Below the pieces are notes generated by a model that ran no database searches, was not told the origin of the DNA, and saw only the letters and a list, made by a program, of their open reading frames with translations. The position numbers were made by a program, and so were the translations under genes. Below, in pieces: positions 34,786 to 57,860 of a stretch of 64,000 nucleotides of DNA (positions within the stretch are counted from its first letter, which is position 1; the number at the start of each line of letters is the position of its first letter). The stretch is from an uncultured Gammaproteobacteria bacterium (GTDB lineage Bacteria > Patescibacteriota > Microgenomatia > UBA8517), in assembly GCA_964489145.1 (NCBI GenBank), contig CAZAXL010000004.1, positions 8,176-72,175 on the forward strand, written 5' to 3'.

Positions 34786-34820
34786 GCAATAAGTTTACCA
34801 CGAGACTTTCGTTTCGTTGA

Positions 34821-34975: not shown

Positions 34976-34978
34976 AAA

Positions 34979-37643: not shown

Positions 37644-37650
37644 TTATTGT

Positions 37651-38213: not shown

Positions 38214-38222
38214 AATTGGAGC

Positions 38223-38363
38223 TTAAACAGAAAGATGTTTTCTCCCCTTCAGTCTTCGTCTTTTGATTATATTTCTGCCGGACTTGGTGCTCATTCTGAC
38301 TCTGAAGCCGTGAGCTCTAACTCTCTTAATTTTACTTGGTTGATAGGTTCTCTTAGTTGCCAT
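38223..38363 (-). CDS. rpmH: Ribosomal protein L34 (not in the supplied ORF track; found by manual translation)
   Basis: Minus-strand translation [46 protein letters not shown] (46 aa). Confidence 0.85.
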
Positions 38364-38502
38364 GACGTTTATTATAGTTTAACTATTAAATTTTGGCAAT
38401 TGGGGCTTGACGAATTGTGGATAACTTTGTAAATAGTACTAAGTACTTAGAAATTTCTGCTCCAAAGCCTCTTGATTTTTACAAGGTACAGATTAATCAA
38501 TT
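38364..38502. promoter_or_regulatory. rpmH-dnaA intergenic region with perfect DnaA box TGTGGATAA (38415..38423); dnaA promoter / oriC part
   Basis: ttgtggataac = reverse-orientation TTATCCACA; AT-rich. Confidence 0.55.
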
Positions 38503-39864
38503 ATGAACAATGAACAAGTTTGGAAAGATTCGCTAGAAATTATAAAGGTCACGGTTTCACCCGCAATATTTTCTACCTGGTTCTCACAAACCCATCTTGT
38601 TTCCATAGAAGACTTAAGCGAGAGGACTATTGTTGAAATAGGGTGTCCCACTTCTTTCGCAAAAAATACTATTGAGGCTAGATATTTCGGTTTGGTCCAG
38701 GACTCATTATCAAAAGTGGTGGGAAAGAAGTGTGACTTAACTTTCATGGTTAAATCAAATCCTAAAATAATTAAGGACACACTAGGGGAGTCCTCTCCGC
38801 TCTTTTCGGTTGAAAAAGATGAAAAAAGCTCTCTTGAGGTTTTACAAAGAGCAAGGGTAAGACCGAGTTTCACTTTTGAAAATTTTGCAGTTTCTTCTTC
38901 AAATCAAATGGCTCATGCCGCAGCAGAGGCAGTTTCTAAAAACTTGGGGTCTGCATATAATCCTCTTTTTATCTGGGGTGGGGTAGGAGTCGGAAAGACT
39001 CATCTCATGGTTTCCGTAGGAAATTCTGTTCTAAAAAAAGATCCCGAGAAAAAAGTACTTTTTTGCACCGGAGAGGATTTCACAAATGATATTGTTGAGG
39101 GTATCAGAAACAAGACAACACAGGCTTTTAGAAACAAATACAGGAAGCTTAATCTGCTTCTTATTGATGATATTCAATTTATTGCCGGCAAAGTCACCGT
39201 ACAGGAAGAATTTTTCCATACTTTCAATTCAGTTACTTCCGTCGGAGGACAAATTATATTAACTTCCGATAGACCACCTTCCGAAATTTCCAAACTTGAA
39301 GAAAGGCTCAGAAGCCGATTTGAGGCCGGTCTTATCGTAGACATAGCCCCGCCGGATTTTGAACTAAGGTGCGCAATCACCCAAATTAAAGCAAGAGAAA
39401 AGGGAGTTGATGTCTCTTCTGAACAAGTTCAAATGATTGCAGCAAATACTGAATCCGCCAGAAAAATTGAGGGAATTCTGACAAGAATTTTAACCGAGAT
39501 ACACATAAAGAATGTTGTTGTTACAAACGAGTTAATCGAGTCGATGTTTTCAAAAAGCTTAGAAACTTCAGGGAAAATAACTCGAAGTTCTCCCGATGAA
39601 GTTATTGATGCTGTTTCTAAATACTTCCAGATAGGAAAGAGGCTGCTTTTGGGGGAGAGTAGGGCGCGGCCCATCGCAAGGCCAAGACAAGTTTTAATGT
39701 ATATCTTAAGAACTCATCTAGGAATTCCTCTGGAGGAAATTGGGAGAGTGGTCGGAGGAAGAGACCATACTACAGTAATGCACGCTGTGGAAAAGATAAC
39801 AGGATTGGCCACAATCGATGTGCAAATCCGTGAGGATATTTTGAAGATAAAACAAACCATTTGA
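38503..39864 (+). CDS. dnaA: Chromosomal replication initiator DnaA
   Basis: AAA+ Walker A GGVGVGKTHL, Walker B LLLIDDIQF, C-terminal DNA-binding domain (RPRQVLMYILRTHL...GGRDHTTVMHA). Confidence 0.9.
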   Translation: MNNEQVWKDSLEIIKVTVSPAIFSTWFSQTHLVSIEDLSERTIVEIGCPTSFAKNTIEARYFGLVQDSLSKVVGKKCDLTFMVKSNPKIIKDTLGESSPLFSVEKDEKSSLEVLQRARVRPSFTFENFAVSSSNQMAHAAAEAVSKNLGSAYNPLFIWGGVGVGKTHLMVSVGNSVLKKDPEKKVLFCTGEDFTNDIVEGIRNKTTQAFRNKYRKLNLLLIDDIQFIAGKVTVQEEFFHTFNSVTSVGGQIILTSDRPPSEISKLEERLRSRFEAGLIVDIAPPDFELRCAITQIKAREKGVDVSSEQVQMIAANTESARKIEGILTRILTEIHIKNVVVTNELIESMFSKSLETSGKITRSSPDEVIDAVSKYFQIGKRLLLGESRARPIARPRQVLMYILRTHLGIPLEEIGRVVGGRDHTTVMHAVEKITGLATIDVQIREDILKIKQTI

Positions 39865-40180
39865 AAACAATTTTAAAGTTTATTGACTTATCAACAACAA
39901 GATTCAAATTATCCACAAATCTATTCACAATTGTCTATGCCTACCATCAACACAAAATCATCCCGAAAAGTAAATTTGTTTTTGAAAAGTTTTCTACTTA
40001 TCAACACTCTCTACTACTAGAACTACTAGTTAATATATGATAAACAAAGTTTGTCACAAACTACCGTTTATGATATTTGTCACAAACTACCGTTTATGAT
40101 ATTTGTCACAAACTACCGTTTATGATATTTGTCACAAACTACCGTTTATGATAAACAAGGTAAAGAAAAATTAACGAAAT
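39865..40180. promoter_or_regulatory. Putative oriC: dnaA-dnaN intergenic region with DnaA boxes and 4 x 26-bp direct repeats
   Basis: Perfect TTATCCACA at 39908..39916; TTATCAACA variants x3; TTTGTCACAAACTACCGTTTATGATA repeated exactly 4x at 40050..40153. Confidence 0.65.
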
Positions 40181-41293
40181 ATGAAATTGCAGGTACTTCA
40201 GGAAAATCTGGAAAAAGCAGTCAGTATAACGACAAGATTTGCGAGCACTAAAGCACAGCTTCCTATTTTAGGAAACATTCTTTTATCTGCAAAAAAAAGC
40301 AAAATATTCCTATCTTCAACAAATCTGGAGATATCAGCATCAGTGCAAATTGGGGCAAAAGTTGAGAAAGAAGGAGAAATAAGCATTCCGGCAAAAGTCA
40401 TTACAGACCTTATTTCTAATTTACCCAAAGAAACAATAAACCTTGAATCTGAGAAAGAACAATTAAAAGTTTCAACAACAGGATTTTCATCCACTATTTT
40501 AGGAATTGATCCTACGGATTTTCCGAAGGTTCCCAACACACTTAACGATAAAAACACCATTGTTTTTTCAAAAAAAGAGATATCTGATTCTTTGAATAAG
40601 GTTATTTTTGCCACTTCGGTTGACGAAACAAGGCCAATCTTGACGGGAGTTCTTTTTATATTGGATAAAAATTCCTTATCTTTAGTCGCTACGGATGGAT
40701 TTAGGCTTTCCAAAAAAGTTATTCCTCTTAAAGACTCTAAAAGTGACAAAAAAACTGTAGTTATTCCAAAAGGTGTTTTAGGGGAAATTAATAGGGGAAT
40801 TTTCGAAGCTGATGAAATTCTTTTTGATTTGGAAGAAAATGAAAAACAAATTATTTTTGGAATAGAAGATACTGTTTTAACATCCAGACTATTGGAAGGA
40901 GAGTATCCTGATTTTGAAAAGATAATTCCCAAAGAGTCTAATATCAAAATCACACTGGATAAAGAAGAATTTTTGAGAGCGGTGAAGCTTGCCTCTATTT
41001 TTGCCAGAGAATCCGCGAATGTTGTAAAAATTAAAATTTTGAAAGATTTGATAAAAGTTTCGGCTGAAAGTAGCGCGGCGGGAAGTCAGGAAACTAAGGT
41101 TGATGCAAAAATTGACAAGGGAAGTTCTGAGGAATTTGAAATTGCTTTTAACTACAGGTATATAGAAGATTTTCTACATTCGGTGGTAGGGGAGGAAATA
41201 AAAATGGAGTTTTTGAATTCGACCTCTGCAGGAGTTTTTAGAGATACGAATGATTCAAGTTATCTTCATTTGATAATGCCGGTAAAAATATAA
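40181..41293 (+). CDS. dnaN: DNA polymerase III beta sliding clamp
   Basis: MKLQVLQENLEKAVSI start, three-domain ~370 aa, position after dnaA. Confidence 0.85.
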   Translation: MKLQVLQENLEKAVSITTRFASTKAQLPILGNILLSAKKSKIFLSSTNLEISASVQIGAKVEKEGEISIPAKVITDLISNLPKETINLESEKEQLKVSTTGFSSTILGIDPTDFPKVPNTLNDKNTIVFSKKEISDSLNKVIFATSVDETRPILTGVLFILDKNSLSLVATDGFRLSKKVIPLKDSKSDKKTVVIPKGVLGEINRGIFEADEILFDLEENEKQIIFGIEDTVLTSRLLEGEYPDFEKIIPKESNIKITLDKEEFLRAVKLASIFARESANVVKIKILKDLIKVSAESSAAGSQETKVDAKIDKGSSEEFEIAFNYRYIEDFLHSVVGEEIKMEFLNSTSAGVFRDTNDSSYLHLIMPVKI

Positions 41294-41295: not shown

Positions 41296-41859
41296 CTACT
41301 GGCCCTCGACGGGATTTTCCGAAAAGGCTTGTCCAAAACTTGTTTTAAATTCATTAAAAGTTGTTGGTTTAAAATACCAAACCTCCAATACAATTCCCGA
41401 TCCCTGGTGTCCAATGTATGCAATTCCTTTATCAGGGTAAATATAAAGATTAAATCCGCTATATGAACTTGATTTATACAAAACATTTTTGTAATTGCCG
41501 TATTTTTCGTTTATGTCTGAAATTGTAATATCATCTTTTGATGAAACAATTTGTTTAACCAGAGTTAGTATTTCGGAATCTATAGAAAATTGATTATTAA
41601 AGTTTGGATTGTTTGATTCATATTCAAGTGTTGTGAGCGTATCGCTTCGGTTTTCTTTCACTGCGGTTCCCATTTGACCAACAACATCGTCTTTGGTGCT
41701 AATACCGGGCGTAAGACTGTTATATGAGGCTCCGGTTTCGGGAATCTTAGTTTTTTGGTTGGTGTCACCTCTACCGGAAAGGGAAATGTAGACAAGATAA
41801 GCTATCGATAACAGCGAAATTGCGGCGATTGCTAAAATTATTTTCTTGTTTTTAAACAT
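41296..41859 (-). CDS. Membrane-anchored extracytoplasmic hypothetical protein (last gene of T4SS-like operon)
   Basis: N-terminal TM (IILAIAAISLLSIAYLVYISL), 187 aa; 14-nt gap to upstream gene. Confidence 0.3.
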   Translation of the reverse strand: MFKNKKIILAIAAISLLSIAYLVYISLSGRGDTNQKTKIPETGASYNSLTPGISTKDDVVGQMGTAVKENRSDTLTTLEYESNNPNFNNQFSIDSEILTLVKQIVSSKDDITISDINEKYGNYKNVLYKSSSYSGFNLYIYPDKGIAYIGHQGSGIVLEVWYFKPTTFNEFKTSFGQAFSENPVEGQ

Positions 41860-41873
41860 ATTTATATTTTACC

Positions 41874-44723
41874 CTAATTGAAAATATATCTCATTAAAAA
41901 TTGGTAGTGAATTGGCCATTTTTGTTGGACGTTTCCACACCTAGGTTGGACAACATAGAGAGCTATTGCTTCCGGTAGAGATTCGCCATCGTTCCAATTT
42001 TGGGTAGCACTATAAAAACAATACGGCGACTCACTTGTTATTCCCGGATACTCTAAATACAACTGATAGAGTTTTGCGGTTTTATTTCCCCACGATAATG
42101 AATGTCCTAGTTCGTGAGAAAGGGTGTAAAGGGCATCTGCCTGATTTTTAACACCAAGTTTGTAAAAATCTACATAGCTTCCATGATTCCAGCCCCAAAA
42201 GCTTTCAAATGAGAAGGGATTGTACCTAAGAGGTAATGATGGATAAGACATACAAACTTTTGAGATGTAACTGCTATATTTTGAAACCATGACACCCCTT
42301 GCATTAACAATGTTGGCATAATATTCTGATGGCCAAGCGTTGGAATCGATATTTAAACATGCCGCCGGGGGAGTGCCTATTGATATAGAGGCCGCACCGG
42401 ACACTTCTTGTTGGGCAGCTTCTTCTGAATCTGCTATGACAGTAAAAGTATCTAAAATAACGGAATCTTTATAATCATTTCCGGAATAATTTTCGGTATA
42501 AGTAAAAACATAAGGGGCACTGGGAGATATTGAATCAGGAATGTCGGTGGACACTTCAGATGGGCAGGTTTTTGTCGGACCCGTCGAAAATATTTGGCAG
42601 TCATTTTTGAAGGCAATATTGGTTAAGGGGCTTTTCTTTGCGGTAACAGTAATGGTATAGCTAATTTGTAGTGGTAATTCAGTGTTTTTAAATGGTCCCT
42701 GAGGGGTTGCTACTTTGTCAACTTGAATGTGGGGGTTCGAACTTAAAGTTGTTATTTGTGTAGGAGGAACAACATAAGCGCCAGAGTTAATGATAAAAAG
42801 AATAAGAGCAACTACTACAGGGAAAACTAAAAGAGTTATCAAAACAGGTGTTCCAATTGAGACAAGAACCGCCCCTCCAAGGGTTGTAAAAAAACTGCCG
42901 ATACTTGTTCCGACAGTTCCCAGATTGATTGTTCCACCTGCGGCCGCCGATGCTAGGCCGAAAGAACCTATTCCGACCACAACTCCCACGAGAGGTCCCG
43001 CAATTGCGAAAGATCCAATTCCCAGAACAGCTCCTATTATGTAGGGGGCGTTTTTCTTGATTTTGTCCCAGGGGATTTTACTTGCAATCCAGCCAACTGC
43101 TGCACCAATTGCAGCTGTTACTACTGCGAGCGGACCACCAGCCAGTCCTAATGCCGCACCCGTTCCGGCACCGGTGGCTGCACCGCCGGCTGCTCCCACT
43201 GCGGTTCCAGTTGCCCCACCCGCTGCAACTCCGACACCTGTTCCAACGGCTTCACCAGCAATCACACCTCCAACCCCGGCAGTCACGACTCCGGTTTCTA
43301 AAACGGCGGTTCCCGCAATGGCACTGACCCCCTCGGTGGCGACAATTGCTGTACTAGCAACCTCAGTCGCAGCCGGTGTTATAATCGTAAAACCAAAATC
43401 AATTCCCAATGAGCTTCCCAGTCCTTCAAAAAAAGTTGAGGCTCCTGGTATTTGCTGGATAATAGGAATAAACACACCGTCCCCAAAGGGGGTGTACTTG
43501 GTTAGTCCAACAACAGAAAGAGCTTGTTGTCCAAGCTCACTGTTATATATTCCCGTAATTAAACTGTCGGAGGGCAATTTCATAATTTGAGAGTCGAGAA
43601 AATTACGGGCTTGTCCAAGCAGGAAACCTTGGGCTTGGTCTTTGCTAAATGAGGTCACACTGTCCAGTAAATTTGATTGAGATTGAAGAAGGTTTGAATA
43701 GCCGTCACTTAGTTGATGAAGATCAATCTCGTGTGTATATCCCTCTATCGGCTGGGTAGTGAGTGTAACTTTAATTTCATTTGGATCGGGTCCAAAAACC
43801 ACAGCAGCAAGATCTCCATTTACAGACGTAAGAATGTTTCTGCTTAGTTGAGTGGAATTATTAAAGAAGGCTAATTCTTGCGTAGCTGTTTTTAAAAAAT
43901 TCTGTACGTTTGCGTCGGAACTAATACTTTTGACGATATTGGTTTCTTTAGAGACAGACTTCAAAATAGCTGTTTGGAAATTTGTTTCTATTTGCTGTGA
44001 GGGGTTGTTAATTGCAAGCACTGTGTCATTTGCCGTTTTGTCAGATAAAACCGTAATTTCTTCTTCTGACAAATTTTTGGCAAATTCGCTCGAGTGAATT
44101 TTTGCCTTTACAATGTTGGAAATTTCTTTTCTGAAAGATTGAGGATATTTTTTGGCTTCCTCAATAAACTGTTTGGTGTTTTCATCCGGTGTTTGAGTTT
44201 GAGGCGCCTCAACTTTTACATAAATTTTTTTATTTTCCAAAAAACTTTGTATTTCTTTTTGTTTTTGTGTTTTTTCTTCAAAAGACTTCTTTATTCTTTC
44301 GATTTCTTGTTGTCTTTTATATGTTTCTTGTTTTTTTCTTAAAGCCTCCTCAACATTTTTTTGAGCACTTTTTTGGGTTTCTTTTAGTTCAGCTTCTCTT
44401 TTTTGCCGTTCGAGTTCCAGAAGTTCCCTCGCTTCTTTATCCGGCAGATTTGAATCAACCGGCTTTTCCTCTTGTTTATTTGAAGTGAGTGCTTCAACGG
44501 CAAGCTGTGCCCTTTTTATATTTTCCAGATCCCTTTCGGATTTAATTAAGACCCCTGTAAGACGACTTATGAAATCTATGAAATCTGCACGGTTTTTCCA
44601 GTTAAACTCACCCGAAACATAAGATTTGTCTGCCGCATAAATTGTGTCTTCGGGGAAAAAATGGGCAAATGCGTCTATTAAATATTTTGTGTTTTCGGAA
44701 GTCAAACTAATTTTATTTGCCAT
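41874..44723 (-). CDS. Large membrane protein of T4SS-like locus: N-terminal coiled-coil domain, Gly/Ala-rich multi-TM segment, C-terminal HExxH zinc-metallopeptidase-like domain
   Basis: Coiled-coil/charged region aa 80-190; ~180-aa G/A/V-rich hydrophobic block; TLSHELGHSL (HExxH) near C-terminus; immediately follows VirB4. Confidence 0.45.
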   Translation of the reverse strand: MANKISLTSENTKYLIDAFAHFFPEDTIYAADKSYVSGEFNWKNRADFIDFISRLTGVLIKSERDLENIKRAQLAVEALTSNKQEEKPVDSNLPDKEARELLELERQKREAELKETQKSAQKNVEEALRKKQETYKRQQEIERIKKSFEEKTQKQKEIQSFLENKKIYVKVEAPQTQTPDENTKQFIEEAKKYPQSFRKEISNIVKAKIHSSEFAKNLSEEEITVLSDKTANDTVLAINNPSQQIETNFQTAILKSVSKETNIVKSISSDANVQNFLKTATQELAFFNNSTQLSRNILTSVNGDLAAVVFGPDPNEIKVTLTTQPIEGYTHEIDLHQLSDGYSNLLQSQSNLLDSVTSFSKDQAQGFLLGQARNFLDSQIMKLPSDSLITGIYNSELGQQALSVVGLTKYTPFGDGVFIPIIQQIPGASTFFEGLGSSLGIDFGFTIITPAATEVASTAIVATEGVSAIAGTAVLETGVVTAGVGGVIAGEAVGTGVGVAAGGATGTAVGAAGGAATGAGTGAALGLAGGPLAVVTAAIGAAVGWIASKIPWDKIKKNAPYIIGAVLGIGSFAIAGPLVGVVVGIGSFGLASAAAGGTINLGTVGTSIGSFFTTLGGAVLVSIGTPVLITLLVFPVVVALILFIINSGAYVVPPTQITTLSSNPHIQVDKVATPQGPFKNTELPLQISYTITVTAKKSPLTNIAFKNDCQIFSTGPTKTCPSEVSTDIPDSISPSAPYVFTYTENYSGNDYKDSVILDTFTVIADSEEAAQQEVSGAASISIGTPPAACLNIDSNAWPSEYYANIVNARGVMVSKYSSYISKVCMSYPSLPLRYNPFSFESFWGWNHGSYVDFYKLGVKNQADALYTLSHELGHSLSWGNKTAKLYQLYLEYPGITSESPYCFYSATQNWNDGESLPEAIALYVVQPRCGNVQQKWPIHYQFLMRYIFN

Positions 44724-44725
44724 AG

Positions 44726-46546
44726 TTATTTACCGGAGTAGGGATTTGTTGCCACCCTAATTACTTCCTGCGGCTTGGTTGTTATAAGCTTGTTCTCATT
44801 CTCCGAGGCAACAATTCTGATTGGTGCGTGGTGAGGTCCGGCAAAGAAAATTCCTTCTCCGACGTTGGCAGCCAGAAGAAGTCTCTTTTCTCCCTGGGAA
44901 AGGTAAAAGACCTCGCCGATTTTATCAATTGCCGCCGGTGATTGCTTCAGGAGGACCTGCATAGCGCTGTTTGTGACAATAGCCTTTCCTATGTCCTGTC
45001 CGAGGAAGTCTTCGACGTCCTGGGTTATCGTAGTGAGTCCCAGATAGTATTTGCGGGCCCTCTTGACAACACTCCAAAGAAATTGCGCCGTATCTGGATA
45101 TCTCATCATGTGCCAAGCCTCGTCAACTATCAGAATTCTTTTCTTTAAATCTTTCTTAACCCTTGTCCAAATATAATCGAGAATTATGAACATGGCGATG
45201 GGGCGGAGTGCATCCTGCAGATCTTTAACGGAGAAAACAGTAAATGGGTTAGTGATATTAATATTCGTTTGCTGATCAAAAATTCCCACAAAACTTCCTT
45301 TGACAAATTTCTCGATTCTGGCGGCCAGATCCAGTGCGTCGGGGACCTCCATTCCAATAAGAGTTTTGTAAAGATCCTCCATTAAAGGCGGTTCTTTTCC
45401 TTGAGTATCAGGATCCATAGTTATTCCCTTGGCTTTATAGGTGATAATCAGGGCTCTATCCAAAAGTGCTTCCTGAGTTGGAGTAATTGCTCCCATGATT
45501 ACTTTCATCAGAGAATGAAGTGAGAGAATTTTAAGTCCAAGCTGGTTTTCTCCCTCCTCCCTGATTTGTGATAAGTCGAAGGGGTTTATTTTTGCGGTTG
45601 AGTTGTAGGAGAAAGAAATGTATTCGCCCCCCACAGCTTCAGCAATGGTTTTGTACTCGCTTTCCGGATCAATAACAATTGTTTCTATCCCAACCATGAG
45701 TGACCTAATTGCTTCCAGTTTGACAAAATAAGACTTGCCGGCGCCACTGGTTGCGAAGATTGTCATATTGGCGTTTTGCAGGCTAAATCTATCAAAAATG
45801 ATAAAAGACTCGTTTTGGGAATTTATACCAAAGAGCACCCCGCGGTCGCTTGAAAGCTCAGTTGAGGTTAAGGGAAAAGTTGTGGCTACGGAGGTTGTGT
45901 CCATATTTCTCGTAATGTTTAACCTGTCTATTCCAAAGGGAGCCGTTGCCGTAAAACCCTCGGACATATCAAGCATGGCGTGTTTACTGACAATCATTAA
46001 GGATCCAAGTTGGGATTCAACCTGTTTGGTTATTTGGTTAAGTTCCTCGGGGGAGTTGGCGGGAATTGTTATGTAAAATCCAAATTCATAAAAACGCTCG
46101 ATTCCCTTGACAAGTTGTTCCTGAAGAGCTTGTGCGTCTTCGAGTTTAGCCTGTGTAACGGGGTCGACGATTTTACCGCGTTCGATATCGGTCATTATCT
46201 CAGCTTCCATTTCGGCAATTTTACGTCTTAGATCATCGAGCACACTTTTTCCGTCTACAGGATAAATGTAAAAAGAAATATCGAGAGAAGTATCTATATT
46301 CACAACCGGCTCAAGCCATCCGGGTGCAACAAATCTCGGATAACCTCCAACAAAAATAGTCCTGAAGTAGATATCGTTTATTTTTAAATAATCAAAATCT
46401 ACCTCGACAGATTGAGGGGAAATCACATCCAATAAACTCATTTTTTGATTCATGACTGAAAAAGCCGGAGATATGATCTGCGGTTTAGCCTCGGTTTCCT
46501 GGATGGGAACCGTCGGTTGCTGGCCTTGTTTATTGTCTGGTTTCAT
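44726..46546 (-). CDS. VirB4/TraC/TrbE-family T4SS ATPase, ATPase (C-terminal) part
   Basis: Walker A FATSGAGKS, VirB4-type Walker B ILIVDEAWHMM, downstream TTITQD; 606 aa is ~200 aa short of full VirB4. Confidence 0.7.
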   Translation of the reverse strand: MKPDNKQGQQPTVPIQETEAKPQIISPAFSVMNQKMSLLDVISPQSVEVDFDYLKINDIYFRTIFVGGYPRFVAPGWLEPVVNIDTSLDISFYIYPVDGKSVLDDLRRKIAEMEAEIMTDIERGKIVDPVTQAKLEDAQALQEQLVKGIERFYEFGFYITIPANSPEELNQITKQVESQLGSLMIVSKHAMLDMSEGFTATAPFGIDRLNITRNMDTTSVATTFPLTSTELSSDRGVLFGINSQNESFIIFDRFSLQNANMTIFATSGAGKSYFVKLEAIRSLMVGIETIVIDPESEYKTIAEAVGGEYISFSYNSTAKINPFDLSQIREEGENQLGLKILSLHSLMKVIMGAITPTQEALLDRALIITYKAKGITMDPDTQGKEPPLMEDLYKTLIGMEVPDALDLAARIEKFVKGSFVGIFDQQTNINITNPFTVFSVKDLQDALRPIAMFIILDYIWTRVKKDLKKRILIVDEAWHMMRYPDTAQFLWSVVKRARKYYLGLTTITQDVEDFLGQDIGKAIVTNSAMQVLLKQSPAAIDKIGEVFYLSQGEKRLLLAANVGEGIFFAGPHHAPIRIVASENENKLITTKPQEVIRVATNPYSGK

Positions 46547-47226
46547 TTGTTTTCAAGTATTACCTCGGGCTCTTTTTTGACGGCTGGCTTTTCCGGATTG
46601 TAAATTGAATAAAACAAGTTTATAAGATCGGGGGTTGTAAGTTGTTTGAATTTAATTCCAAGTCGTCCTGCCTGACGGACAAGATGGTCGCGTCTTGGGT
46701 AAAGAGCAATTTTTGCTTTTTTAATAACATATGATTTAGTAAATGGAAGGGGTCCGGATAATTTCGTAACCGCGGCTATAGATTTTGCTACCCCAAGCTC
46801 AAGTGGAGACAGATAAAGAACGACAAAAAATCTTTTTCCTAAAACATTTTTCTTTTTAACGGATTCGGTTATAAAGTTTTTATAATCCTGCATGAGATTT
46901 GCAAGAAGGGGCTGAGTAATCTTTTTTGATTGCTCATCCAGAAAGTTTAGATATGATGAAATATCTTTCTTTTGGGTTAAAACAACAATTTGTACGGAGA
47001 AAGTAAGTGAATTTACCATGGCTGCATAAGCAGCAATTACGGCTTCCTGTTCTTTTTCCGAAAGGAGCCCAAAGTTTAGGGAACTTGACTCCATGATAAG
47101 TGCTGCTCCGCCATCTTTATAAATAACGATGTCATTGGTAATGTCGGCAACAGGTACAAAATCTTGAGTGGTTGAAGTTAAAGGTTTGTCGGGAATATTT
47201 ATAAATGGAATTTTAGGTATATTCAT
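46543..47226 (-). CDS. Probable VirB4 N-terminal domain encoded as a separate ORF (split VirB4)
   Basis: 227 aa, soluble; DIVIYKDGGAALIMESSSLNFGLLSEKEQE resembles VirB4/TrbE N-domain; ATGA overlaps with flanking genes on both sides. Confidence 0.4.
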   Translation of the reverse strand: MNIPKIPFINIPDKPLTSTTQDFVPVADITNDIVIYKDGGAALIMESSSLNFGLLSEKEQEAVIAAYAAMVNSLTFSVQIVVLTQKKDISSYLNFLDEQSKKITQPLLANLMQDYKNFITESVKKKNVLGKRFFVVLYLSPLELGVAKSIAAVTKLSGPLPFTKSYVIKKAKIALYPRRDHLVRQAGRLGIKFKQLTTPDLINLFYSIYNPEKPAVKKEPEVILENK

Positions 47227-48290
47227 TGGTTTGTTAGTATGTTTGTCGGTTGTTGCATTGGGGTTGCTTGAGTCGTCACAAGTGACCTTCCTTCTACCAG
47301 AATCGGGGGAATAATTTCTCCTTTGGCCTCAAAATTAACGGGCATGAATTGATATCCGTCCTTTTCACTGATAATGCCATATTGGCCGTTATCAAGAGCA
47401 GTGACCGCCATAAAGTGTCCGAGCTTGTTGCTTCTAAGGGCTCTAATGGGCCTGCCGTATTCGTCTCTAATCTCAATAATTGCTCCTTCAATAATTCTTC
47501 TTGCCTCGTCAACAACCTGACCCACCACTACGTTGGGATATGTAGGCGGGTTTGGGGGAGTGGCGTCAATTGAAAAAATGGCTTCTCTGGTAGAAACTAT
47601 TTCTTCCCCAGCAATTGTAGGATTAACATGCTGAGTCTGGACTTGCACTGTTTGAGAAACGGGTTGAACCCTTTCCTCGACGACAAGGTGGGTGGTCTGC
47701 ATGGGGGTTATTTTGACAGATGTGCTTACGGGAATCTCCAGTTTTTTGGGAGCAGGGGGGGGTGTTGGGACGGTGGGGGTTTGGGCTGTGGCCACAGGAG
47801 TTACAGGACCTTTAATGCCGGCAAATATACCGGCAAGGGCAGCCAGGAAACCCTGTTCCGCACCCTCCAATTTAGCAAGAGGTCCGGCCATTTGTTTAGC
47901 GCTTTCCAAATAGTTTTTGAGAGCAGCGTCTTGGTTTTGATTTCCCTGTTGGGGCGGAATATTGCTGACCGCAGTTTCATCTTGAAAAAACCTGGGAACC
48001 TCTTTTGTTTTTTTCCAGTTGAAAATTGTTGGAGAATAGATTGTTTTAAAAAACGATAAAATCCACTGTTCCAGGGGACGCTCCTCAAGAGGGACAAAAG
48101 CCATGGCGGCGCCCAAAATTACAGAGACAATTGCAAACGGCCATTTGATTATTCCAATTAAAGGAGATGAATAAAAAATTAAACCAACCAAAAACCCCCC
48201 CGCAAGCTGAAAGAATTGCTTGAGAGTCATATCTCCCACCAACCGGAATTGGTAAGAAGATATATTTTGCGGAATTGGATGTTGTTCCAT
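47223..48290 (-). CDS. PrgI/VirB3-like membrane protein with ~250-aa C-terminal extension (first gene of operon)
   Basis: DMTLKQFFQLAGGFLVGLIFY...two TM resembles PrgI-family PLTLRQF..L..G block; directly upstream of VirB4 as in monoderm T4SS. Confidence 0.5.
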   Translation of the reverse strand: MEQHPIPQNISSYQFRLVGDMTLKQFFQLAGGFLVGLIFYSSPLIGIIKWPFAIVSVILGAAMAFVPLEERPLEQWILSFFKTIYSPTIFNWKKTKEVPRFFQDETAVSNIPPQQGNQNQDAALKNYLESAKQMAGPLAKLEGAEQGFLAALAGIFAGIKGPVTPVATAQTPTVPTPPPAPKKLEIPVSTSVKITPMQTTHLVVEERVQPVSQTVQVQTQHVNPTIAGEEIVSTREAIFSIDATPPNPPTYPNVVVGQVVDEARRIIEGAIIEIRDEYGRPIRALRSNKLGHFMAVTALDNGQYGIISEKDGYQFMPVNFEAKGEIIPPILVEGRSLVTTQATPMQQPTNILTNQ

Positions 48291-48431
48291 GCTTTAAGGC
48301 AGGGCGAAGAATATTAAAAGCAATCTTTTTTGTCTTTACCCTATACTTCTAGGCTACAGCGTGAACGACTGCTTTCAAGTGGTATACTTTTTCACAACAA
48401 ATAAGTATTAATCTTTCGCTTCAAGGCAATC

Positions 48432-51152
48432 TTGTTATATAATTTACATATGCCCGACGGTATGTCACCTGAAAACAAACCACAATCAAGTATTGAATTT
48501 ATGAAATCCCTCGGAGGACCGACCAGACTTCCTGCTAATGAAATAACAGGCCAGGCTGCGAAAGATTTTCCTCAACCTGAATCAAGAGCTAATGTTCCGG
48601 ATATAAGGATGCAGGTGGGCAATGGTGATGAAGAAAGTAATGCAGCAGCGGAGCGTGCAAAGCTGGAATATTTAATACGAATGGGTGAGCTTATGGGTTC
48701 AGAAGAGGGTGGGGGTTATTTAAATAAGTTTATAGACAACATTCGGGGTTTATCCAAAAAAGTAGAAGACCCCACAACTCACGAGTCAAGAAATAAAACC
48801 GAGGAAGAGAAAGATAAAGTTAGGGAGAATATTGCAGAGGCTTACGTTCATCTGTGCCATGCAGAGCTTGATGAAATAAACACAATAAATAAATATCTTG
48901 AGGATTTGAAAAACCCATTCCCTTACGATTCAAGGTGGACAATCCAGACTTTTGAAAGGATCGAAGAAAGAATAAATGGAGTACTTAGGGAAAAGAAAGG
49001 TAGGGCAGTTGATGGTGAAGGTAGGGCGCTACTCCATATGTACAAAAGGGATCTGAAGTGGGCGCTAGCCACAGCAAAAATAAACGAAGCAATGGGGCCA
49101 GCCTACGAGCTTTATTTTGACGGTGAGTTAGAAATGCAGCGCCTAAGAACTCCGCATAGCGAAGTTAAAGCATCAGATTTCATGAGTGCTTTTCAGGGAC
49201 ACGAAACCGGTTTTGAGAAGGATGTACTTGATGAAGAAAATAAATTAATACAGAAAACACTTTTGAAGATTCCACCCGAATATCTTAAAGATGTGGACGG
49301 AGAAAACACTTTTAAAGAAAAGACTTTGGTGGAAAAGGCAATAGAATATCAAGATTTATATAGCACACTGTCGCTCGATGCTTTCGCTTCGGCCCAAAAA
49401 AATCTTGAATATGGGTTCGGTGCTGGAGACGATAAAGAAGCTGGAAATCATTATAAAAACATAGATTATGTTACCTTTCGCTTAATGAATGAACTTTTTA
49501 GCTCTTCTAAGGCAGTTGAGGATGGAAAAGTTGTGGAAGCAGAGGACGAGAATTTAGTTTATGTTAATCGAAAAGGAGAGGGATTTAATGTTAAAGCTCA
49601 TCCGATTTTGAACCCTCACAATATGCAGAGGGATGACGATCTTGCCTACCGTCAATATTATTCGAGGATGCATGAGCTTATGCTTCATTGGAATGATGCT
49701 TACAGTAGTCAAATTGATGAAGTTAGGAATGTTTCAGACTTGTCAAAAGACGATATAGACGAAAAAATTAGAGCAATTGCCGACGGAATTGTAGCTAAAG
49801 CGGATAAAAGAGCTAAATCACAAAGAACTTTAGACGAAGGCCATCCGTATGACAGGTTAATAGATACTGTAATTAATTCTCAAATTAATCTGGAACGCGG
49901 AATTCTTGCAAGTGGAGAGTATGGCTGGGGTTGGTCTTATAATGAGAAGACTGATAAAAGAGGAAATGTTGTGGTAGTAAGGAAATCTGAACTTGGAAGC
50001 ATATATGATAACCACGATCTCACAACTATGGTTTATTGGGCTAGGCACATTATTGACTACGATAACATGGGGGAGACACGGGGAGCTCTTCTGTTTCCTA
50101 CAATTGGCAGTTACAGAGAAAGGTGGATGAGCGAACCTCCATATTGGAAGCCGGAATTGACTGAGTTTGCCCAAAATGATAACACTCTTCTTCGAAGATT
50201 AGGGTTGGAAGGCAGTTATGGGATTCTTTCCCAGAAAAATTTCCTGGAGGATAAAGTTGGTAGAAAAACGTACTTTAAGGGGGCGAAAGGGTGGCAAGAG
50301 CAAAAATATGGCAAGTTTGATGAGTCTTGTGCAAAGTATATCAAAGAGAACGCCTGGGCATTTGTTACTTGTTGGTTAAACGAACCTGGTAAAGGGAGCG
50401 ATGAATACAATCTTGTCTTCCCAGTCTTTTTACCGACAATGATTGAAGATGTTAATTTTTGGAGATCTGTTAGCCTCCAGGGACCGTCTGAAAAAATTAA
50501 TACTTACCCTCTTGCAGATCCTAAAAAGGGTGATCCAAAAAGTCTTTGGAATGAAAGGATGGAAGGGAAAAAGTTGTCAGAAATGCGGTGGGAATATATG
50601 TCCAAGTATAAATACAATTGGACAATGGTGAACCTGGATCAGATGGAGCGCTGGTTTGGGCCAATGGTAACGCCACACGATTTCAATAAGTCAACCGCGC
50701 CGGAATTTGAAAAACACTACAACATGCCAGGTGGTAAAAGTGAAAAAGAGGCAGGGAAAAGAGGAAGATTGGGAGCAAGGGGCTCACGTTGGGTGGATGG
50801 AGTTATTAGAGCAACGGTTTTGGCCCAAAACAAGGTGCTATCTGCGGTCCAGTTAAGTGGAGTTATGGGTGTGGATGTTTCTGCGCTTACAAATGTAAAT
50901 GAGAGAAATTCTTCCTTGAATAAGGAATTGGATACATGGAGATTAAATTGGATAGCCCCTTGGATAAACACAATGCTAGATATGCCCTCCGATGTGCGCA
51001 AGGTTAAAAATTATGGAGGAACAGCTGCTCAATCACTTCTGGTGTCTTACCTTCAAGTTCGAAGAATTATAGCCTCTGCTGTTGCCCACAGTAATGGTCA
51101 AAAGCTGGACGTTAACAAATCTATAGACCAAATAGAAGAAGGATTTACTTAA
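48432..51152 (+). CDS. Large soluble hypothetical protein (906 aa), plus-strand gene inside the minus-strand T4SS-like locus
   Basis: No TM, no recognisable motifs; TATAAT lies inside the first codons, so true start may be MPDGMSPEN at 48450. Confidence 0.4.
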   Translation: MLYNLHMPDGMSPENKPQSSIEFMKSLGGPTRLPANEITGQAAKDFPQPESRANVPDIRMQVGNGDEESNAAAERAKLEYLIRMGELMGSEEGGGYLNKFIDNIRGLSKKVEDPTTHESRNKTEEEKDKVRENIAEAYVHLCHAELDEINTINKYLEDLKNPFPYDSRWTIQTFERIEERINGVLREKKGRAVDGEGRALLHMYKRDLKWALATAKINEAMGPAYELYFDGELEMQRLRTPHSEVKASDFMSAFQGHETGFEKDVLDEENKLIQKTLLKIPPEYLKDVDGENTFKEKTLVEKAIEYQDLYSTLSLDAFASAQKNLEYGFGAGDDKEAGNHYKNIDYVTFRLMNELFSSSKAVEDGKVVEAEDENLVYVNRKGEGFNVKAHPILNPHNMQRDDDLAYRQYYSRMHELMLHWNDAYSSQIDEVRNVSDLSKDDIDEKIRAIADGIVAKADKRAKSQRTLDEGHPYDRLIDTVINSQINLERGILASGEYGWGWSYNEKTDKRGNVVVVRKSELGSIYDNHDLTTMVYWARHIIDYDNMGETRGALLFPTIGSYRERWMSEPPYWKPELTEFAQNDNTLLRRLGLEGSYGILSQKNFLEDKVGRKTYFKGAKGWQEQKYGKFDESCAKYIKENAWAFVTCWLNEPGKGSDEYNLVFPVFLPTMIEDVNFWRSVSLQGPSEKINTYPLADPKKGDPKSLWNERMEGKKLSEMRWEYMSKYKYNWTMVNLDQMERWFGPMVTPHDFNKSTAPEFEKHYNMPGGKSEKEAGKRGRLGARGSRWVDGVIRATVLAQNKVLSAVQLSGVMGVDVSALTNVNERNSSLNKELDTWRLNWIAPWINTMLDMPSDVRKVKNYGGTAAQSLLVSYLQVRRIIASAVAHSNGQKLDVNKSIDQIEEGFT

Positions 51153-51161
51153 ATTGTATTT

Positions 51162-52889
51162 CTAACGCTCCCCGGGCCCTTTCTGGCCGCCGGTACCTGG
51201 TTGTCCGCCTTGTTTTTGCATACTCTTCAAGATATCATTCAACACTTTCATTGCTCCTCGTCCTCCACCCCTGCTTTCAATTGCTTGCTGCAACCTTCCC
51301 GCTGCATATGTCGTTCCAGCTTCTGCTCCATATTTCTGTACACCGGAGGCAACTCCACTAAACGGTCCCAGAGCCTCACCAATTCCTGTTCCTGCAAATT
51401 CTTTGCCTGCCATAAATGATTCGATAGCCTCAGATATTTTTGGTATCATCATGATTATACCAACACTCATCAACAAAAATGCAATTGCCGTAGCAGAAGC
51501 GGGGTTTCCTAGCATTGGAGGTCCCCAAGCATTGCAAAAATCTAGAGTATTAGCAGGGTCAAAAAATTCAATTCCTGTAAATTTACTTATCAACCCCAAC
51601 TCCAATCTTAGTACGGGTTTAAGTATGCTCATGAGACCGTTGTTGCAAATAGCGCCGTATACAGATGTGGCCATGGAGTATCCCAGTAGGAAAAAAGATA
51701 TATAAATGAATATTCCGGTAAGGGGAAATACTAGTAGTTTTGAAAACAATTTCTTGAGCCAGCTACTAAAACCCGACTGTGGAAAGAGTGTGCCCATGGT
51801 GATCTGGAGTGGGGCAATTATTATAAGGCCATACACTGCCGCTAGGTTTTTAAAAAGCATAAATATGACTCTGACAGTGCTTACAATAAGTATAAGTAGC
51901 AAGATTATTGTGAAGATAATGAGAAGCAGGCTAAAAAGTGTTGAAGAAATATGGAAACCTGAAACCGATGCTAATAAAGCAACGACCGCAGCAACAAAAA
52001 ATAATATTATATATGCGATAAAATAAAAAAATATTGCGATACCACCATCTTGTAGAAGTGGGATAGACCCGTTGATGAAAGCAAAAATAATTTTTCCCTC
52101 TGCCACCTTCAAAAAATTTGTTGGAATAAAGGACGACATCATAGCAGAAAATACACCCATAATGACATATATTAGGTCAATCATGAATCCAGCAATCGCG
52201 AATGAAAATGTTACTAAAATAAGCGAAATAACTATTTTAGGTAAAGCAGATTGAACACTAATTACTAGTTGAGGGGATAACTTAACCCTCAACATGATCA
52301 TAAAAGCGAAAACAATTGTTACTATTACGAACAGGAAGAAGGAGAAATTTCTGGTTAGTCCCCAAAGTGGTCTAATTACTGTTAATACCGTATAACCATA
52401 TCCGGTGGTTTGGGCGTGAACTTCCGTAACCGGGTCCAGTTTTCTTATTATGTTTTTGACATAACTAATGCCAGAAATTGGTCTATCAGCAAAAATCTGG
52501 GAAGCAATAGATGGTTGATGTTGTGTGTTTTCGGTTAAACCAAGGTCGGCTGTAGAATCATTTATAAAATTAGTGAGACCATCAACACAAGCATCTAGTT
52601 GAATATTTGACGCAACGGCCCCCATAAAACAACTGGCAACATCAGTATTGCCTCCGGTTACCAAGTTAATAAACATAGAAGGAAGGCTGTAGATAATCCA
52701 TTGAACCTGAGCTGCGGTATAACGCTCTCCAAAAATTTCATTTTGATTTGAATTGTCGTATACCTTTAGGTACCATTCAGGGAGAGATTGGTTGTACCAA
52801 GTTGTTTGAGCCTTGGCCTGAGAGAATGGGCCGAGGGAAATAAGAAAAGTAGTGCCGATTAGGATGGATATGAGCAGTTTTTTAAACAT
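51162..52889 (-). CDS. Polytopic membrane protein, VirB6/TrbL-like (inferred)
   Basis: Signal peptide, ~150-aa extracytoplasmic N-domain, >=6 TM, Gly/Pro/Gln-rich C-terminal tail (GGQPGTGGQKGPGER) as in TrbL; position between surface protein and VirB3/4. Confidence 0.4.
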   Translation of the reverse strand: MFKKLLISILIGTTFLISLGPFSQAKAQTTWYNQSLPEWYLKVYDNSNQNEIFGERYTAAQVQWIIYSLPSMFINLVTGGNTDVASCFMGAVASNIQLDACVDGLTNFINDSTADLGLTENTQHQPSIASQIFADRPISGISYVKNIIRKLDPVTEVHAQTTGYGYTVLTVIRPLWGLTRNFSFFLFVIVTIVFAFMIMLRVKLSPQLVISVQSALPKIVISLILVTFSFAIAGFMIDLIYVIMGVFSAMMSSFIPTNFLKVAEGKIIFAFINGSIPLLQDGGIAIFFYFIAYIILFFVAAVVALLASVSGFHISSTLFSLLLIIFTIILLLILIVSTVRVIFMLFKNLAAVYGLIIIAPLQITMGTLFPQSGFSSWLKKLFSKLLVFPLTGIFIYISFFLLGYSMATSVYGAICNNGLMSILKPVLRLELGLISKFTGIEFFDPANTLDFCNAWGPPMLGNPASATAIAFLLMSVGIIMMIPKISEAIESFMAGKEFAGTGIGEALGPFSGVASGVQKYGAEAGTTYAAGRLQQAIESRGGGRGAMKVLNDILKSMQKQGGQPGTGGQKGPGER

Positions 52890-52922
52890 GACAGGTGCCT
52901 CTAATTGATTATTAGGATAGCA

Positions 52923-55313
52923 TTAATTTGGGTAATTAGGTAGTGCTATTCCCGGTGCAATGACGGAATAAATAAAGTTCAAATCGTTCGTATAACTTGA
53001 TATTTTATCTTTTTCGTTTTGATTTAGTGGGGAGCAGTGTCCAAACCAAAACATTGAAATAAAGGTACTCATATCCTTTTTACCACACTTGGCAGCGTAT
53101 GAACTTGGTAAATTTAAAAAGAAGTCTAGTTGTTTACTAAAATTATTAGTTGGTACACTTTGATTACCGTGGATGCCAAAATCTTCGACAGGATAGTTTA
53201 CAGCCTCGTAATTACTTGCATCGGATTCATGTATCCAGATGGCAAGAGTAAATATTGGATCTATATTTTTGTTTTTTGACCTCTGAATAACATCATTATT
53301 ACATTCTTTGAAGTAAGGTCTGCCGGGACCCGTCGCATACCAGATCTTGGTTATATTTTCCGCCTCGGTTTTGTTTAAACCATTCACAGCAATTTCCGGA
53401 ATGGTTTGATTGCAATTTATTTCACCGCTACTGCTCGAATCTTCATCAGAATTCGGTGCAAAAGAAATTGCGTCACCAAGCCCTTTGGGTCTGAGAGCGG
53501 TTTGGATACCATTTAAGAAATATTCGGAAATTCCTCCCAGATGGGGGAGTTTTAAATCGGTGTTTGATTGAGAGACATTCGTGCCTGAATAATTAATATT
53601 AGTAGATCCCGGCATATCCATTATCTGCCCGACGCTTCCAGCCGTGTTGGTTTTTGGGAAAATTCTCTTGAAAACCGCCATTGGACCCGCCACAAGGCGC
53701 GACCAAATATCGTCGGCGAGAGGAATTTTTGAGGTAGTTGAGAGGTTGATATAAACATCTTTTTTACACTCCTGGGTAGAAGTGGGCGCGGAGGTCGGGT
53801 TAGCATCAGGATAGAGACAATCTGCTCGGCATTCGTTGGGCGCGCCTCCGAAATAAGTACATCTTTCATAGCAACCGGTGGGGATAGGGGCGTCAAAAGT
53901 ACAAGAAAAATTGGCTGTATAGGAAAGATCCCCCGTCAGCTGTGTGGCAAAAAGATCATCTCCCTTATTTGAACGCACCTCAACGGTATTACAGGAAGTT
54001 TCCGATGCAACATTTGTCGGACTCCCGACTTTATCCTCCCCTTTTGGAGTATAGGTATCTTGCAGGAGAGAACTAAGTTGGTCAGATTCTTCCATGTGGG
54101 AGAAAAAAAGAGTAGCGGGATTTTGATTTGAGAATGCAATATTTTTTACGATTACATTTGAGTCTGACGTGCCTTGCGCGGATGATACTTGGTCGATGGA
54201 AATATTTCCTTCGACATCCTCAGTTGAAGAGAGGGGAATGTAGGAAAAGAGATCCGAATATTCATTCGAAATAAGAATATTATTCAAGCACAAAAGTATT
54301 TTAGGAAAAGGAGTAATAATACAAGAGTTTCCCTGCCATTCCTTATACGCTTTTTGATATGTTAAAGAGTCAAAGGGCTTGCCGCTTGGATCAACTCCCC
54401 AGGAAAGCGGAGGGACTCGATACGGCCAAGCTTTATTCTGGTCTAATGCCTGTGTGATAATATCTCCCGGAATAGATGGAAATGTATTAAGAAAAAGATC
54501 GAGAAGTGAAATGCCGGCGTTTTGTAGGGTATTTACAATCGAAAGATTTCCATCCCAGTTTGTTAATCTCCATTTCTCTTCACCCGGACAATCGGTGGCA
54601 ACTGTTTGACCGACGCCCAGGTTCTCCAAACCCCATTTAAGGAAAGATGGAATTAGGCTGGAGTTGATTTCTTTTTTTGTGCAAACCACAACCTGGTCGT
54701 GTCTTGTGACTTTTGCGTTTTTTATTTGCGTAAACCTATTTGCGTTTTGGATTTCCAACGGAAGAAGCTTGGCTAAGGGGCCAGAAAAATTTACTAATGA
54801 ATCATCGTCACTCTTATCAGGATATTCTTTTTTGTTTGTTACTCCTCCAAGATACCAACTTACGTAATCATTCATTTTGTCGGCGTCTGAAAGCGCGTCT
54901 TCGGTGTTGCCCATAAAAGGCAGGTCCGCACCGCTTAAATCAATCGTTACTTTGTGGCTGGGGACAGACACGTTGTATGTGCAATAAACTTTACTTCCTT
55001 TTGTGGTACAATTTCCGCCTCCTCCTGTGTATGTTTTTTCGATGGTTTCCTTCAAGGTGAGATTGTTTCCGCAAAAAGTTGCCTCACTGGCCGTTTGAGA
55101 AGTGCATTGGGTATTTGCTTGGTATGGACGAAGAGAGTTAAATTCAGTATCGGAAACATTTCCACAGGAGATATTTGTGTTAGCAGGAACTTGGGCATTT
55201 ACAGTTCCAATTTCTAATTTCAAATTTCTAATTTCTAATAAAATTACAATTAATAAAATTACAAGAACTGAAAGTTTAAAATTCGAGATTTTAGATTTGA
55301 GATTGAGAATCAT
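52923..55313 (-). CDS. Large Cys-rich secreted/surface protein (796 aa), possible C-terminal lysozyme-like domain
   Basis: N-terminal TM/signal anchor, many Cys pairs, C-terminal FTLAIWIHESDASNYEAV resembles transglycosylase ES motif (weak). Confidence 0.35.
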   Translation of the reverse strand: MILNLKSKISNFKLSVLVILLIVILLEIRNLKLEIGTVNAQVPANTNISCGNVSDTEFNSLRPYQANTQCTSQTASEATFCGNNLTLKETIEKTYTGGGGNCTTKGSKVYCTYNVSVPSHKVTIDLSGADLPFMGNTEDALSDADKMNDYVSWYLGGVTNKKEYPDKSDDDSLVNFSGPLAKLLPLEIQNANRFTQIKNAKVTRHDQVVVCTKKEINSSLIPSFLKWGLENLGVGQTVATDCPGEEKWRLTNWDGNLSIVNTLQNAGISLLDLFLNTFPSIPGDIITQALDQNKAWPYRVPPLSWGVDPSGKPFDSLTYQKAYKEWQGNSCIITPFPKILLCLNNILISNEYSDLFSYIPLSSTEDVEGNISIDQVSSAQGTSDSNVIVKNIAFSNQNPATLFFSHMEESDQLSSLLQDTYTPKGEDKVGSPTNVASETSCNTVEVRSNKGDDLFATQLTGDLSYTANFSCTFDAPIPTGCYERCTYFGGAPNECRADCLYPDANPTSAPTSTQECKKDVYINLSTTSKIPLADDIWSRLVAGPMAVFKRIFPKTNTAGSVGQIMDMPGSTNINYSGTNVSQSNTDLKLPHLGGISEYFLNGIQTALRPKGLGDAISFAPNSDEDSSSSGEINCNQTIPEIAVNGLNKTEAENITKIWYATGPGRPYFKECNNDVIQRSKNKNIDPIFTLAIWIHESDASNYEAVNYPVEDFGIHGNQSVPTNNFSKQLDFFLNLPSSYAAKCGKKDMSTFISMFWFGHCSPLNQNEKDKISSYTNDLNFIYSVIAPGIALPNYPN

Positions 55314-55350
55314 GTCTAATTATTATATCAGTTAAACCTGAGAAGATTTA

Positions 55351-55632: not shown

Positions 55633-55677
55633 AACAACACCATTTTAGAGTAAACAGCGAAGTCGAGCAAGAGAGAC

Positions 55678-56025: not shown

Positions 56026-56040
56026 ATCTTATTGTGTATA

Positions 56041-56403: not shown

Positions 56404-56411
56404 TTTTATGT

Positions 56412-57151: not shown

Positions 57152-57152
57152 T

Positions 57153-57461: not shown

Positions 57462-57526
57462 ACTACAATTTTATTGTAAAGCCATTTTATTATAATAGAC
57501 CTTCTGAAGCAAGTCAGTGTAGATTG

Positions 57527-57859: not shown

Positions 57860-57860
57860 G

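Follow-up and report, generated by a model that had tools for sequence, protein, structure and literature searches.

The window analysed here, a 64-kb stretch of contig CAZAXL010000004.1 from a metagenome-assembled genome (MAG), carries a putative replication origin (oriC) in the 316-bp spacer between dnaA and dnaN, an exact tandem array of four 26-bp repeats close to the start of dnaN, and a block of type IV secretion system (T4SS) genes directly after dnaN (Table 1). We read the spacer as an oriC of the Bacillus subtilis type (incC-like) that bears a recent, strain-specific and non-essential 26-bp array and has an ancestral T4SS locus as its neighbour, a reading to which we give a probability of about 0.78. 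That the dnaA-dnaN spacer is the chromosomal oriC, with the working origin in the 185 bp that precede the array, is well supported.

The genes around the spacer are those of the canonical origin neighbourhood recognised in an original prediction made from the letters of this DNA. Pfam matches bear out all seven genes of the order rpmH-rnpA-yidD-yidC-jag and dnaA-dnaN, and the DnaA and DnaN matches lie on either side of the spacer. The best database homologues of DnaA bear Microgenomates or Woesebacteria names, which places the organism in the Patescibacteria (Candidate Phyla Radiation). Furthermore, the cumulative GC skew, profiled over the 64-kb window, reaches its minimum within that window at position 38335, at the boundary between rpmH and dnaA. 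In the left arm the plus-strand skew is 0.004 for plus-strand genes and -0.089 for minus-strand genes; the corresponding values in the right arm are 0.141 and 0.025, and averaging the two strand classes gives about -0.04 for the left arm and about +0.08 for the right. Gene orientation thus adds about 0.05 to the skew, and the class mean flips at the origin, so the sign switch persists after control for coding strand.

The core of the origin lies between the end of dnaA and the array. Published definitions give the DnaA box as 5'-TTATCCACA-3' and the DnaA-trio as 3'-GAT-5' (PMC10201434; PMC10721633). With up to two mismatches allowed, four boxes occur within the 185 bp at 39865-40049, all on the plus strand, against 0.83 expected, and the count of boxes with at most one mismatch is at chance over the whole window (21 found versus 17.9 expected). 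Box scanning thus returns a local, co-oriented cluster in the spacer. Both perfect boxes named in the original prediction exist, but they lie one base away from the coordinates given there, at 38416-38424 and 39909-39917. The box TTATCAACA of the unwinding module (39998-40006) has one mismatch to the consensus and is followed by CTCT and by CTACTACTAGAACTACTAG, which splits as CTA CTA CTA GAA CTA CTA G; the bottom strand at 40011-40029 reads 3'-GAT GAT GAT CTT GAT GAT-5', which is the DnaA-trio motif. The module also agrees with the published search rule (PMC8287927), under which 0-16 bp separate a box with at most two mismatches from a run of three or more triplets whose middle base, on the trio strand, is A. 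Duplex stability, calculated by nearest neighbours over 20-bp windows, falls to about -18.2 to -19.2 kcal/mol for windows starting at 40018-40031, and the minimum of the spacer (40018-40050) sits around the 99th percentile of the window (-19.09). The AT-rich stretch TTAATATATGATAAACAAAG, the least stable duplex of the spacer, is therefore the likely DNA unwinding element (DUE).

These elements are conserved among relatives, which we compared by their dnaA-dnaN loci over a range of 82-98% DnaA identity (labels such as L174 denote fetched loci). In an 11-sequence spacer alignment the core positions of the DnaA boxes are invariant; CTACTACTA and CTACTA are also invariant in the spacers of 11 relatives, TTAATATATGATA is almost so, and the DNA between the elements drifts. 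The motif AAAATCATCCCGAAAA, which stands between the DnaA boxes and is not itself one, contains the sequence CCCGAA at columns C98-A103 of alignment A3 (11 relatives), all of them invariant. Bacillales control spacers (L043, L049, L026, L024 and L077) read TTATCCACA-TATCCACAA-GxCC-CTACTACTATTACTACTA-AT-rich-dnaN, and strand and element order are identical between these controls and the module of the window. Together, the gene context, the conserved box cluster, the trios with their AT-rich DNA and the GC-skew switch uphold the assignment of this neighbourhood to an origin. By analogy with B. subtilis, DnaA would bind the four or five co-oriented boxes at 39888-40006, oligomerise from the last of them onto the 3'-GAT-5' trios of the bottom strand (40011-40029) and then open the neighbouring AT-rich DNA at 40030-40049.

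A further DnaA box lies upstream of dnaA. Seven relatives keep the block GGGGCTTGACGAATTGTGGATAACTTTGTAAA unchanged or almost so, which does not hold for the spacer DNA around it. We infer that the TTGACG-N17-TAAATA block is an autoregulated dnaA promoter, in which the perfect box TGTGGATAA between the two hexamers is likely the autoregulatory operator. On the minus strand, a promoter-like TTGCCA-17-TATAAT is also found upstream of rpmH (38399-38371).

One patch of the dnaA-dnaN spacer (~39977-39997, TTTGTTTTTGAAAAGTTTTCT) is much closer to L174, at 89% DnaA identity, than to L179, at 98%. This hints that different lineages have recombined within the origin region.

The array follows the AT-rich stretch without interruption. 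The four exact copies of a 26-bp sequence at 40050..40153 that had been reported from the letters were confirmed by Tandem Repeats Finder (40050-40153, period 26, 4.0 copies, 100% matches) and by a search with up to three mismatches, which returned only these four copies in the window and none in shuffled sequence. The complete identity of the four copies points to a recent amplification. Each unit repeats the last 7 bp (TATGATA) of the AT-rich stretch and carries a 5-1-5 palindrome, (G)TTTGT-C-ACAAA(C), which is lengthened to 6-1-6 in the first copy; a single, diverged unit at locus L088 has the 6-1-6 form too. Folded as DNA, the array has a modest z of -2.2, whose source is the self-complementary GTTTGTCACAAAC segments. 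These segments let neighbouring units pair in single-stranded DNA, which would favour slippage; we read the fold as such an aid and rejected it as a designed structure. In our reading, a segment was first inserted and then amplified in tandem, by slippage during replication or by unequal recombination. We conclude that it is probably a recent, strain-specific and neutral tandem amplification. Most likely it is dispensable for origin function, its effect being at most to place dnaN 111 bp farther from the unwinding region.

Distribution among relatives carries this conclusion. The array is absent from 11 other lineages with the same origin core, among them L081, L083, L086, L169, L171 and L174-L177. 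The relatives at 82-90% DnaA identity (L081/L082, L083/L084, L086/L087, L169/L170, L171-L173, L174, L175, L176 and L177/L178) have spacers of 205-268 bp with the same gene order and core and no array. The DnaA 90% cluster to which the window belongs also has variants at 98.0-99.8% identity, of which we examined P0121 (98.2%), found in five places in five samples (L179-L183). All five loci share one identical spacer with an empty site, ...TATGATAAACAAAG/AAAAGAAAAATTAACG. The junction reads ...TATGATAAACAAAG/AAAAGAAAAATTAACGAAATATG in these loci and ...TATGATAAACAAAG + 4 x 26 bp + AACAAGGTAAAGAAAAATTAACGAAATATG in the window, and the 111 bp that the window has in excess are the array plus the 7 bp before it. 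DNA identity between the window and L179-L183 is 93.7% in dnaA and 90.8% in dnaN. Copy number is therefore four in the window, zero in L179-L183 and one in L088. Of the 132 loci examined in which dnaA and dnaN are neighbours, only that of the window has at least three exact copies of any repeat in this spacer; the other nine repeat-bearing loci have about two copies with periods of 13-23 bp and mostly 78-93% identity. Searches beyond the close relatives agree. With up to six mismatches, 2.76 Mb of fetched loci contain the unit outside the window locus only as the L088 copy. An exact 21-mer scan of Joint Genome Institute (JGI) metagenome contigs and a degenerate 26-mer scan of viral contigs found no copy of it, and a megablast of the region against plasmids gave no match. 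A DnaA scan of metagenome contigs returned only distant relatives among the matches listed, with at most 63% identity.

This genome also forms such arrays in ordinary spacers, as indicated by a second strain-specific array 5 kb from the first (34824-34971; Table 1). It was absent from all 178 related loci fetched at that point, in which the corresponding spacer measures about 4-50 bp or the genes overlap. On the minus (sense) strand, each copy can fold into a 9-bp stem, GTGGTAAGC-AGA-GCTTGCCAC.

The original prediction had suggested that the repeats form an iteron-like or unwinding element and had named their absence from close relatives with the same function as evidence to the contrary. Such absence is what we found, up to and including relatives with 98% DnaA identity. 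The array also has no DnaA box, an average duplex stability and no Rep gene nearby, and we abandon the suggestion. An extension of the DUE by the array, in the manner of the AT-rich 13-mers of Escherichia coli oriC, is in our view highly improbable. The array does lie directly after the AT-rich stretch and its units do repeat the last 7 bp of that stretch; moreover, at the unit junctions the top strand has runs of five triplets whose central base is T, which fits a loose (.A.){3,} trio pattern. Yet these triplets do not resemble CTA/GAT, and no DnaA box lies within the 16 bp that the rule of PMC8287927 allows. Nor are the units easily melted: their stability of -22 to -24.7 kcal/mol per 20 bp is close to the window mean (-24.7, standard deviation 2.6), the minimum of about -18.2 to -19 lies at 40018-40050, and the array is 31% GC compared with 28% for the whole spacer. 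The absence of the array from relatives weighs against this explanation as well.

Other sources of the array fared no better. Within it we found no DnaA box with up to two mismatches, no open reading frame (ORF) of at least 60 amino acids and no sigma-70-like promoter on the plus strand, and an Rfam search of 39800-40250 (E up to 1) gave no match. A promoter duplication was rejected because TTGTCA and TATGAT are just 12 bp apart in the unit and promoter-like counts for the region are at chance. As a source of the unit we also dismissed dnaN: an 11-nt match, AACTACCGTTT, seen by eye in the dnaN of L176 has no counterpart in the dnaN of the window and was taken as chance. Compared by eye with a parS consensus, the unit agrees at only about 8 of 16 positions.

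An alternative, which amounts to the iteron-like reading, holds that the 26-bp units are binding sites for a dimeric regulator and became multiplied as a means of modulating the firing of the origin, the loading of the helicase or the expression of dnaN. The palindrome in each unit is the kind of site that a dimer could use, 13 nt are shared without change by the window and L088, whose DNA is elsewhere about 74% identical, the array adjoins the unwinding region, and an exact array of at least three copies makes this spacer unique among the 132 loci. Set against these features are the lack of the unit in 11 lineages with the same core, with a clean empty site at 98% DnaA identity, and the lack of any adjoining gene for a Rep-type or other candidate binding protein. 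Moreover, the array contains no DnaA box, and its motif TTTGTNACAAA is not repeated in the window outside it. The contiguous copies with a period of 26 bp are also unlike the spacing of plasmid iterons, which is helically phased at roughly 22 bp. We consider regulator sites unlikely and retain a neutral amplification as the better account.

The L088 copy bears on the history of the site. At positions 11549-11574 of this locus (contig_19271, ERZ25039477), a single diverged copy, TTTGTCACAAACTTCGTTTTGTGATA, is identical to the unit at 22 of 26 positions and occupies exactly the same place after the oriC AT-rich stretch, with homologous flanks. By chance, the DNA searched would yield about 0.0015 matches to a 26-mer at up to four mismatches, so the copy is truly homologous. 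L088 and the window have 82% DnaA identity and about 71-74% DNA identity in dnaA and dnaN, and the closer relatives of L088 (L175-L177, 92-94% DnaA identity to it) have empty sites. Two histories are possible. An ancestral segment may have been lost many times by precise deletion between the flanking 14-bp direct repeats, TATGATAAACAA(A/G)G; alternatively, the segment may have been gained twice or moved by recombination. In a stronger form of the second history, a palindrome-bearing module of 19-26 bp (GTTTGTCACAAAC...GTTTATGATA) entered one spot twice or passed between lineages by recombination. The spot is the same in the window and in L088, directly after the unwinding region at TATGATAAACA(A/C)AG, but we regard this form as unlikely. 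If it were true, the module, amplified four-fold in this genome, would be an origin-targeting insertion or a templated-repair footprint, or else the binding site of an accessory regulator of initiation or of dnaN on which only part of the strains rely.

Could the array, or its copy number, be an artefact of short-read metagenome assembly? The genome is metagenome-assembled, and an exact tandem array of this size, about 104 bp, approaches the length of a short read. The only other sequence with the four-copy array, L085, has an identical DnaA and comes from another assembly; this assembly apparently belongs to the same study, and the L085 contig breaks off 131 bp upstream of dnaA. Nevertheless, the two different assemblies both have four copies, the 19 bp of novel sequence cannot arise by mis-assembly, and a homologue of that sequence occupies the same site in an unrelated sample (L088). 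Assemblers also tend to collapse tandem repeats and not to expand them. We therefore hold an artefact to be very improbable.

Several points weigh against the reading of a conserved origin with a neutral, strain-specific array. The window and L088 agree at all 13 nt of the GTTTGTCACAAAC palindrome, although their dnaA and dnaN have only about 71-74% DNA identity; this exceeds the conservation of neutral spacer DNA elsewhere and could mean function. The presence of the unit in two non-sister lineages is unexplained by a single simple duplication. L085 may derive from the same reads as the window, which makes its independence doubtful. The comparison extends up to P0121, and the variants P0122, P0125 and P0128 are nearer to the window (99.6-99.8% DnaA identity). 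Finally, that the origin fires, that DnaA binds it and exactly how many copies the array has are inferred from the assembled sequence.

The T4SS block to the right of dnaN had been suspected to be an insertion or rearrangement, on the grounds that its minus-strand genes break the expected leading-strand bias right after dnaN. The coding bases co-oriented with replication amount to 50% on the left of the origin and 44% on the right. With no leading-strand gene bias on either side, the window has no bias to break. The strand observations themselves were accurate in part: to the left of dnaA, genes keep to the minus strand from 29699 to 38363, but strands are mixed farther left, and about 83% of the first 17 kb to the right is on the minus strand, with the exception of the 906-aa gene on the plus strand (48432-51152). 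A comparison of the region downstream of dnaN, proposed in the original prediction, returned the same T4SS genes in the same order and on the same strand in all relatives (82-98% DnaA identity) and no empty site. Furthermore, tblastn located T4SS genes within about 10 kb of dnaA-dnaN in loci of other Microgenomates, Paceibacteria and Saccharibacteria. With synteny in all relatives, proximity to dnaA in distant Patescibacteria and no gene bias to break, an insertion or rearrangement is not sustained. We also rejected an integrated conjugative element or genomic island: the site is conserved, no integrase or relaxase was matched among the scanned ORFs of the block, no tRNA gene was found in or beside it, its GC content (0.38-0.44) is typical of the window and its plus-strand skew equals that of the right arm.

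Published work agrees with this conclusion. A T4SS near dnaA, dnaN, rnpA and rpmH has been reported in Patescibacteria for Microgenomatia and Paceibacteria (PMC12102498), and the patescibacterial T4SS is described as a conserved chromosomal machine (PMC12857230; PMC7427843). In a cultivated Saccharibacterium the T4SS is essential, according to the summary of Wang et al. (2023) in PMC12857230. The block is thus an ancestral, conserved neighbour of the origin in the phylum, and its proximity to the origin here reproduces a published pattern. In four Paceibacteria-like loci (L004, L005, L006 and L074), VirB4-, TraC- and PrgI-like genes lie upstream of dnaA on the plus strand, and rpmH, yidC and jag follow dnaN, also on the plus strand; the linkage between origin and T4SS is kept and the arrangement differs.

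Table 1. Coordinates of the origin elements, repeat arrays and neighbouring genes in the 64-kb window.
Feature	Position	Strand	Remarks
Second tandem array	34824-34971		Five copies of GCAAGCTCTGCTTAC in 31-bp units, between Wzy_C-like and RNase H-like genes
jag-like gene, KH/R3H	36361-36822	-	Pfam
yidC	36819-37643	-	Pfam
yidD	37651-37872	-	Pfam
rnpA (RNase P protein)	37869-38213	-	Pfam
rpmH (ribosomal protein L34)	38223..38363	-	Pfam PF00468, E 9e-23; first gene of the leftward block 36361-38363
Putative dnaA promoter	38407..38435	+	TTGACG 38407-38412, 17-nt spacer, TAAATA 38430-38435
Perfect DnaA box TGTGGATAA	38416-38424	-	Inside the promoter spacer
dnaA	38503..39864	+	Pfam DnaA_N, Bac_DnaA, Bac_DnaA_C
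DnaA box TTATCAACA	39888-39896	+	Upstream cluster (39888..39952), all co-oriented
Perfect DnaA box TTATCCACA	39909-39917	+	Upstream cluster
DnaA box CTATTCACA	39921-39929	+	Upstream cluster
DnaA box CCATCAACA	39944-39952	+	Upstream cluster; TTATCAACA in some relatives
Motif AAAATCATCCCGAAAA	39954..39969	+	Between DnaA boxes, not a DnaA box; conserved, CCCGAA invariant
Unwinding module (basal unwinding system, BUS)	39998..40029	+	Box TTATCAACA 39998-40006, CTCT, then CTACTACTAGAACTACTAG 40011-40029
AT-rich stretch TTAATATATGATAAACAAAG	40030..40049		Least stable duplex of the spacer; likely DUE
Four exact tandem copies of TTTGTCACAAACTACCGTTTATGATA	40050..40153	+	After the AT-rich stretch, before the dnaN leader
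dnaN (sliding clamp)	40181..41293	+	Pfam DNA_pol3_beta domains 1-3
T4SS block	41296..58268	mostly -	Pfam, with precomputed Pfam matches in relatives as well; genes 41296-48290 and 51162-58268 on -
VirB4/TraG-P-loop ATPase	44726-46546	-	Pfam
TraC-like gene	46543-47226	-	Pfam
PrgI/VirB3-like gene	47223-48290	-	Pfam
Conserved 906-aa gene in the T4SS block	48432-51152	+	
Nine small ORFs, 93-135 aa	55351-58268	-	7/9 match PF18895 (T4SS pilin); one also TrbC/VirB2

Elsewhere in the window, smpB (62902-63336, Pfam SmpB) is followed immediately by the tmRNA gene (63340-63702, Rfam 157 bits), and the sole tRNA gene lies at 17729-17800. Among the relatives, the dnaN of L176 (5362-6130, GCA_964446695.1) was left uncalled in its MAG because the gene is split by a scaffold gap in the form of a run of N; this is an assembly issue and involves no gene loss.

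A well-supported Microgenomates origin is useful for orienting genomes, for coverage-based estimates of growth rate and for the curation of MAGs. A full-text literature search returned no paper that combines Candidate Phyla Radiation, oriC and DnaA box. The locus also indicates that the origin core can stay in place when about 110 bp of DNA enter between its unwinding region and dnaN.

Among known systems, the closest is the oriC of the B. subtilis type. Like the origin of the window, it lies between dnaA and dnaN, combines a 5'-TTATC(C/A)ACA box with about 4 bp, 5'-CTA repeats, AT-rich DNA and then dnaN, and is accompanied by a DnaA box in the dnaA promoter. This box/trio/AT-rich module is thus almost unchanged in an ultra-small, uncultivated lineage. 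Differences are nonetheless apparent. One box abuts the trios in the window, where Bacillales have a tandem pair, and the trio run is broken by GAA (3 + 2 trios). The region upstream of dnaA has a single box in place of a large box cluster, and the origin therefore looks monopartite. In addition, the 111-bp strain-specific array separates the AT-rich region from dnaN. The iterons of plasmids and secondary chromosomes share with the array the presence of identical direct repeats inside a replication origin region. However, no Rep family match was found beside the array, whose neighbours are DnaA, DnaN and T4SS genes; the repeats are contiguous 26-mers that are not conserved even at 98% DnaA identity, and the origin already has a complete DnaA-dependent core. 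The 13-mers (L, M and R) of E. coli oriC are likewise direct repeats beside a cluster of DnaA boxes, but the 26-mers differ from them in being exact, lineage-specific and not unusually AT-rich or unstable. The array has more in common with variable-number tandem repeats and minisatellite-like arrays, which are exact, head-to-tail, non-coding copies whose presence varies among close relatives, and the genome has a second array of this sort (34824-34971). A place beside the oriC unwinding region is unusual for such repeats, having been found in one of the 132 dnaA-dnaN loci. For its part, the T4SS block is typical of the chromosomal T4SS of Patescibacteria, with the same VirB4-like, PrgI/VirB3-like and TraC-like genes and an array of VirB2-like pilins. 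The locus is thus a new example of a known origin type, with a strain-specific tandem repeat.

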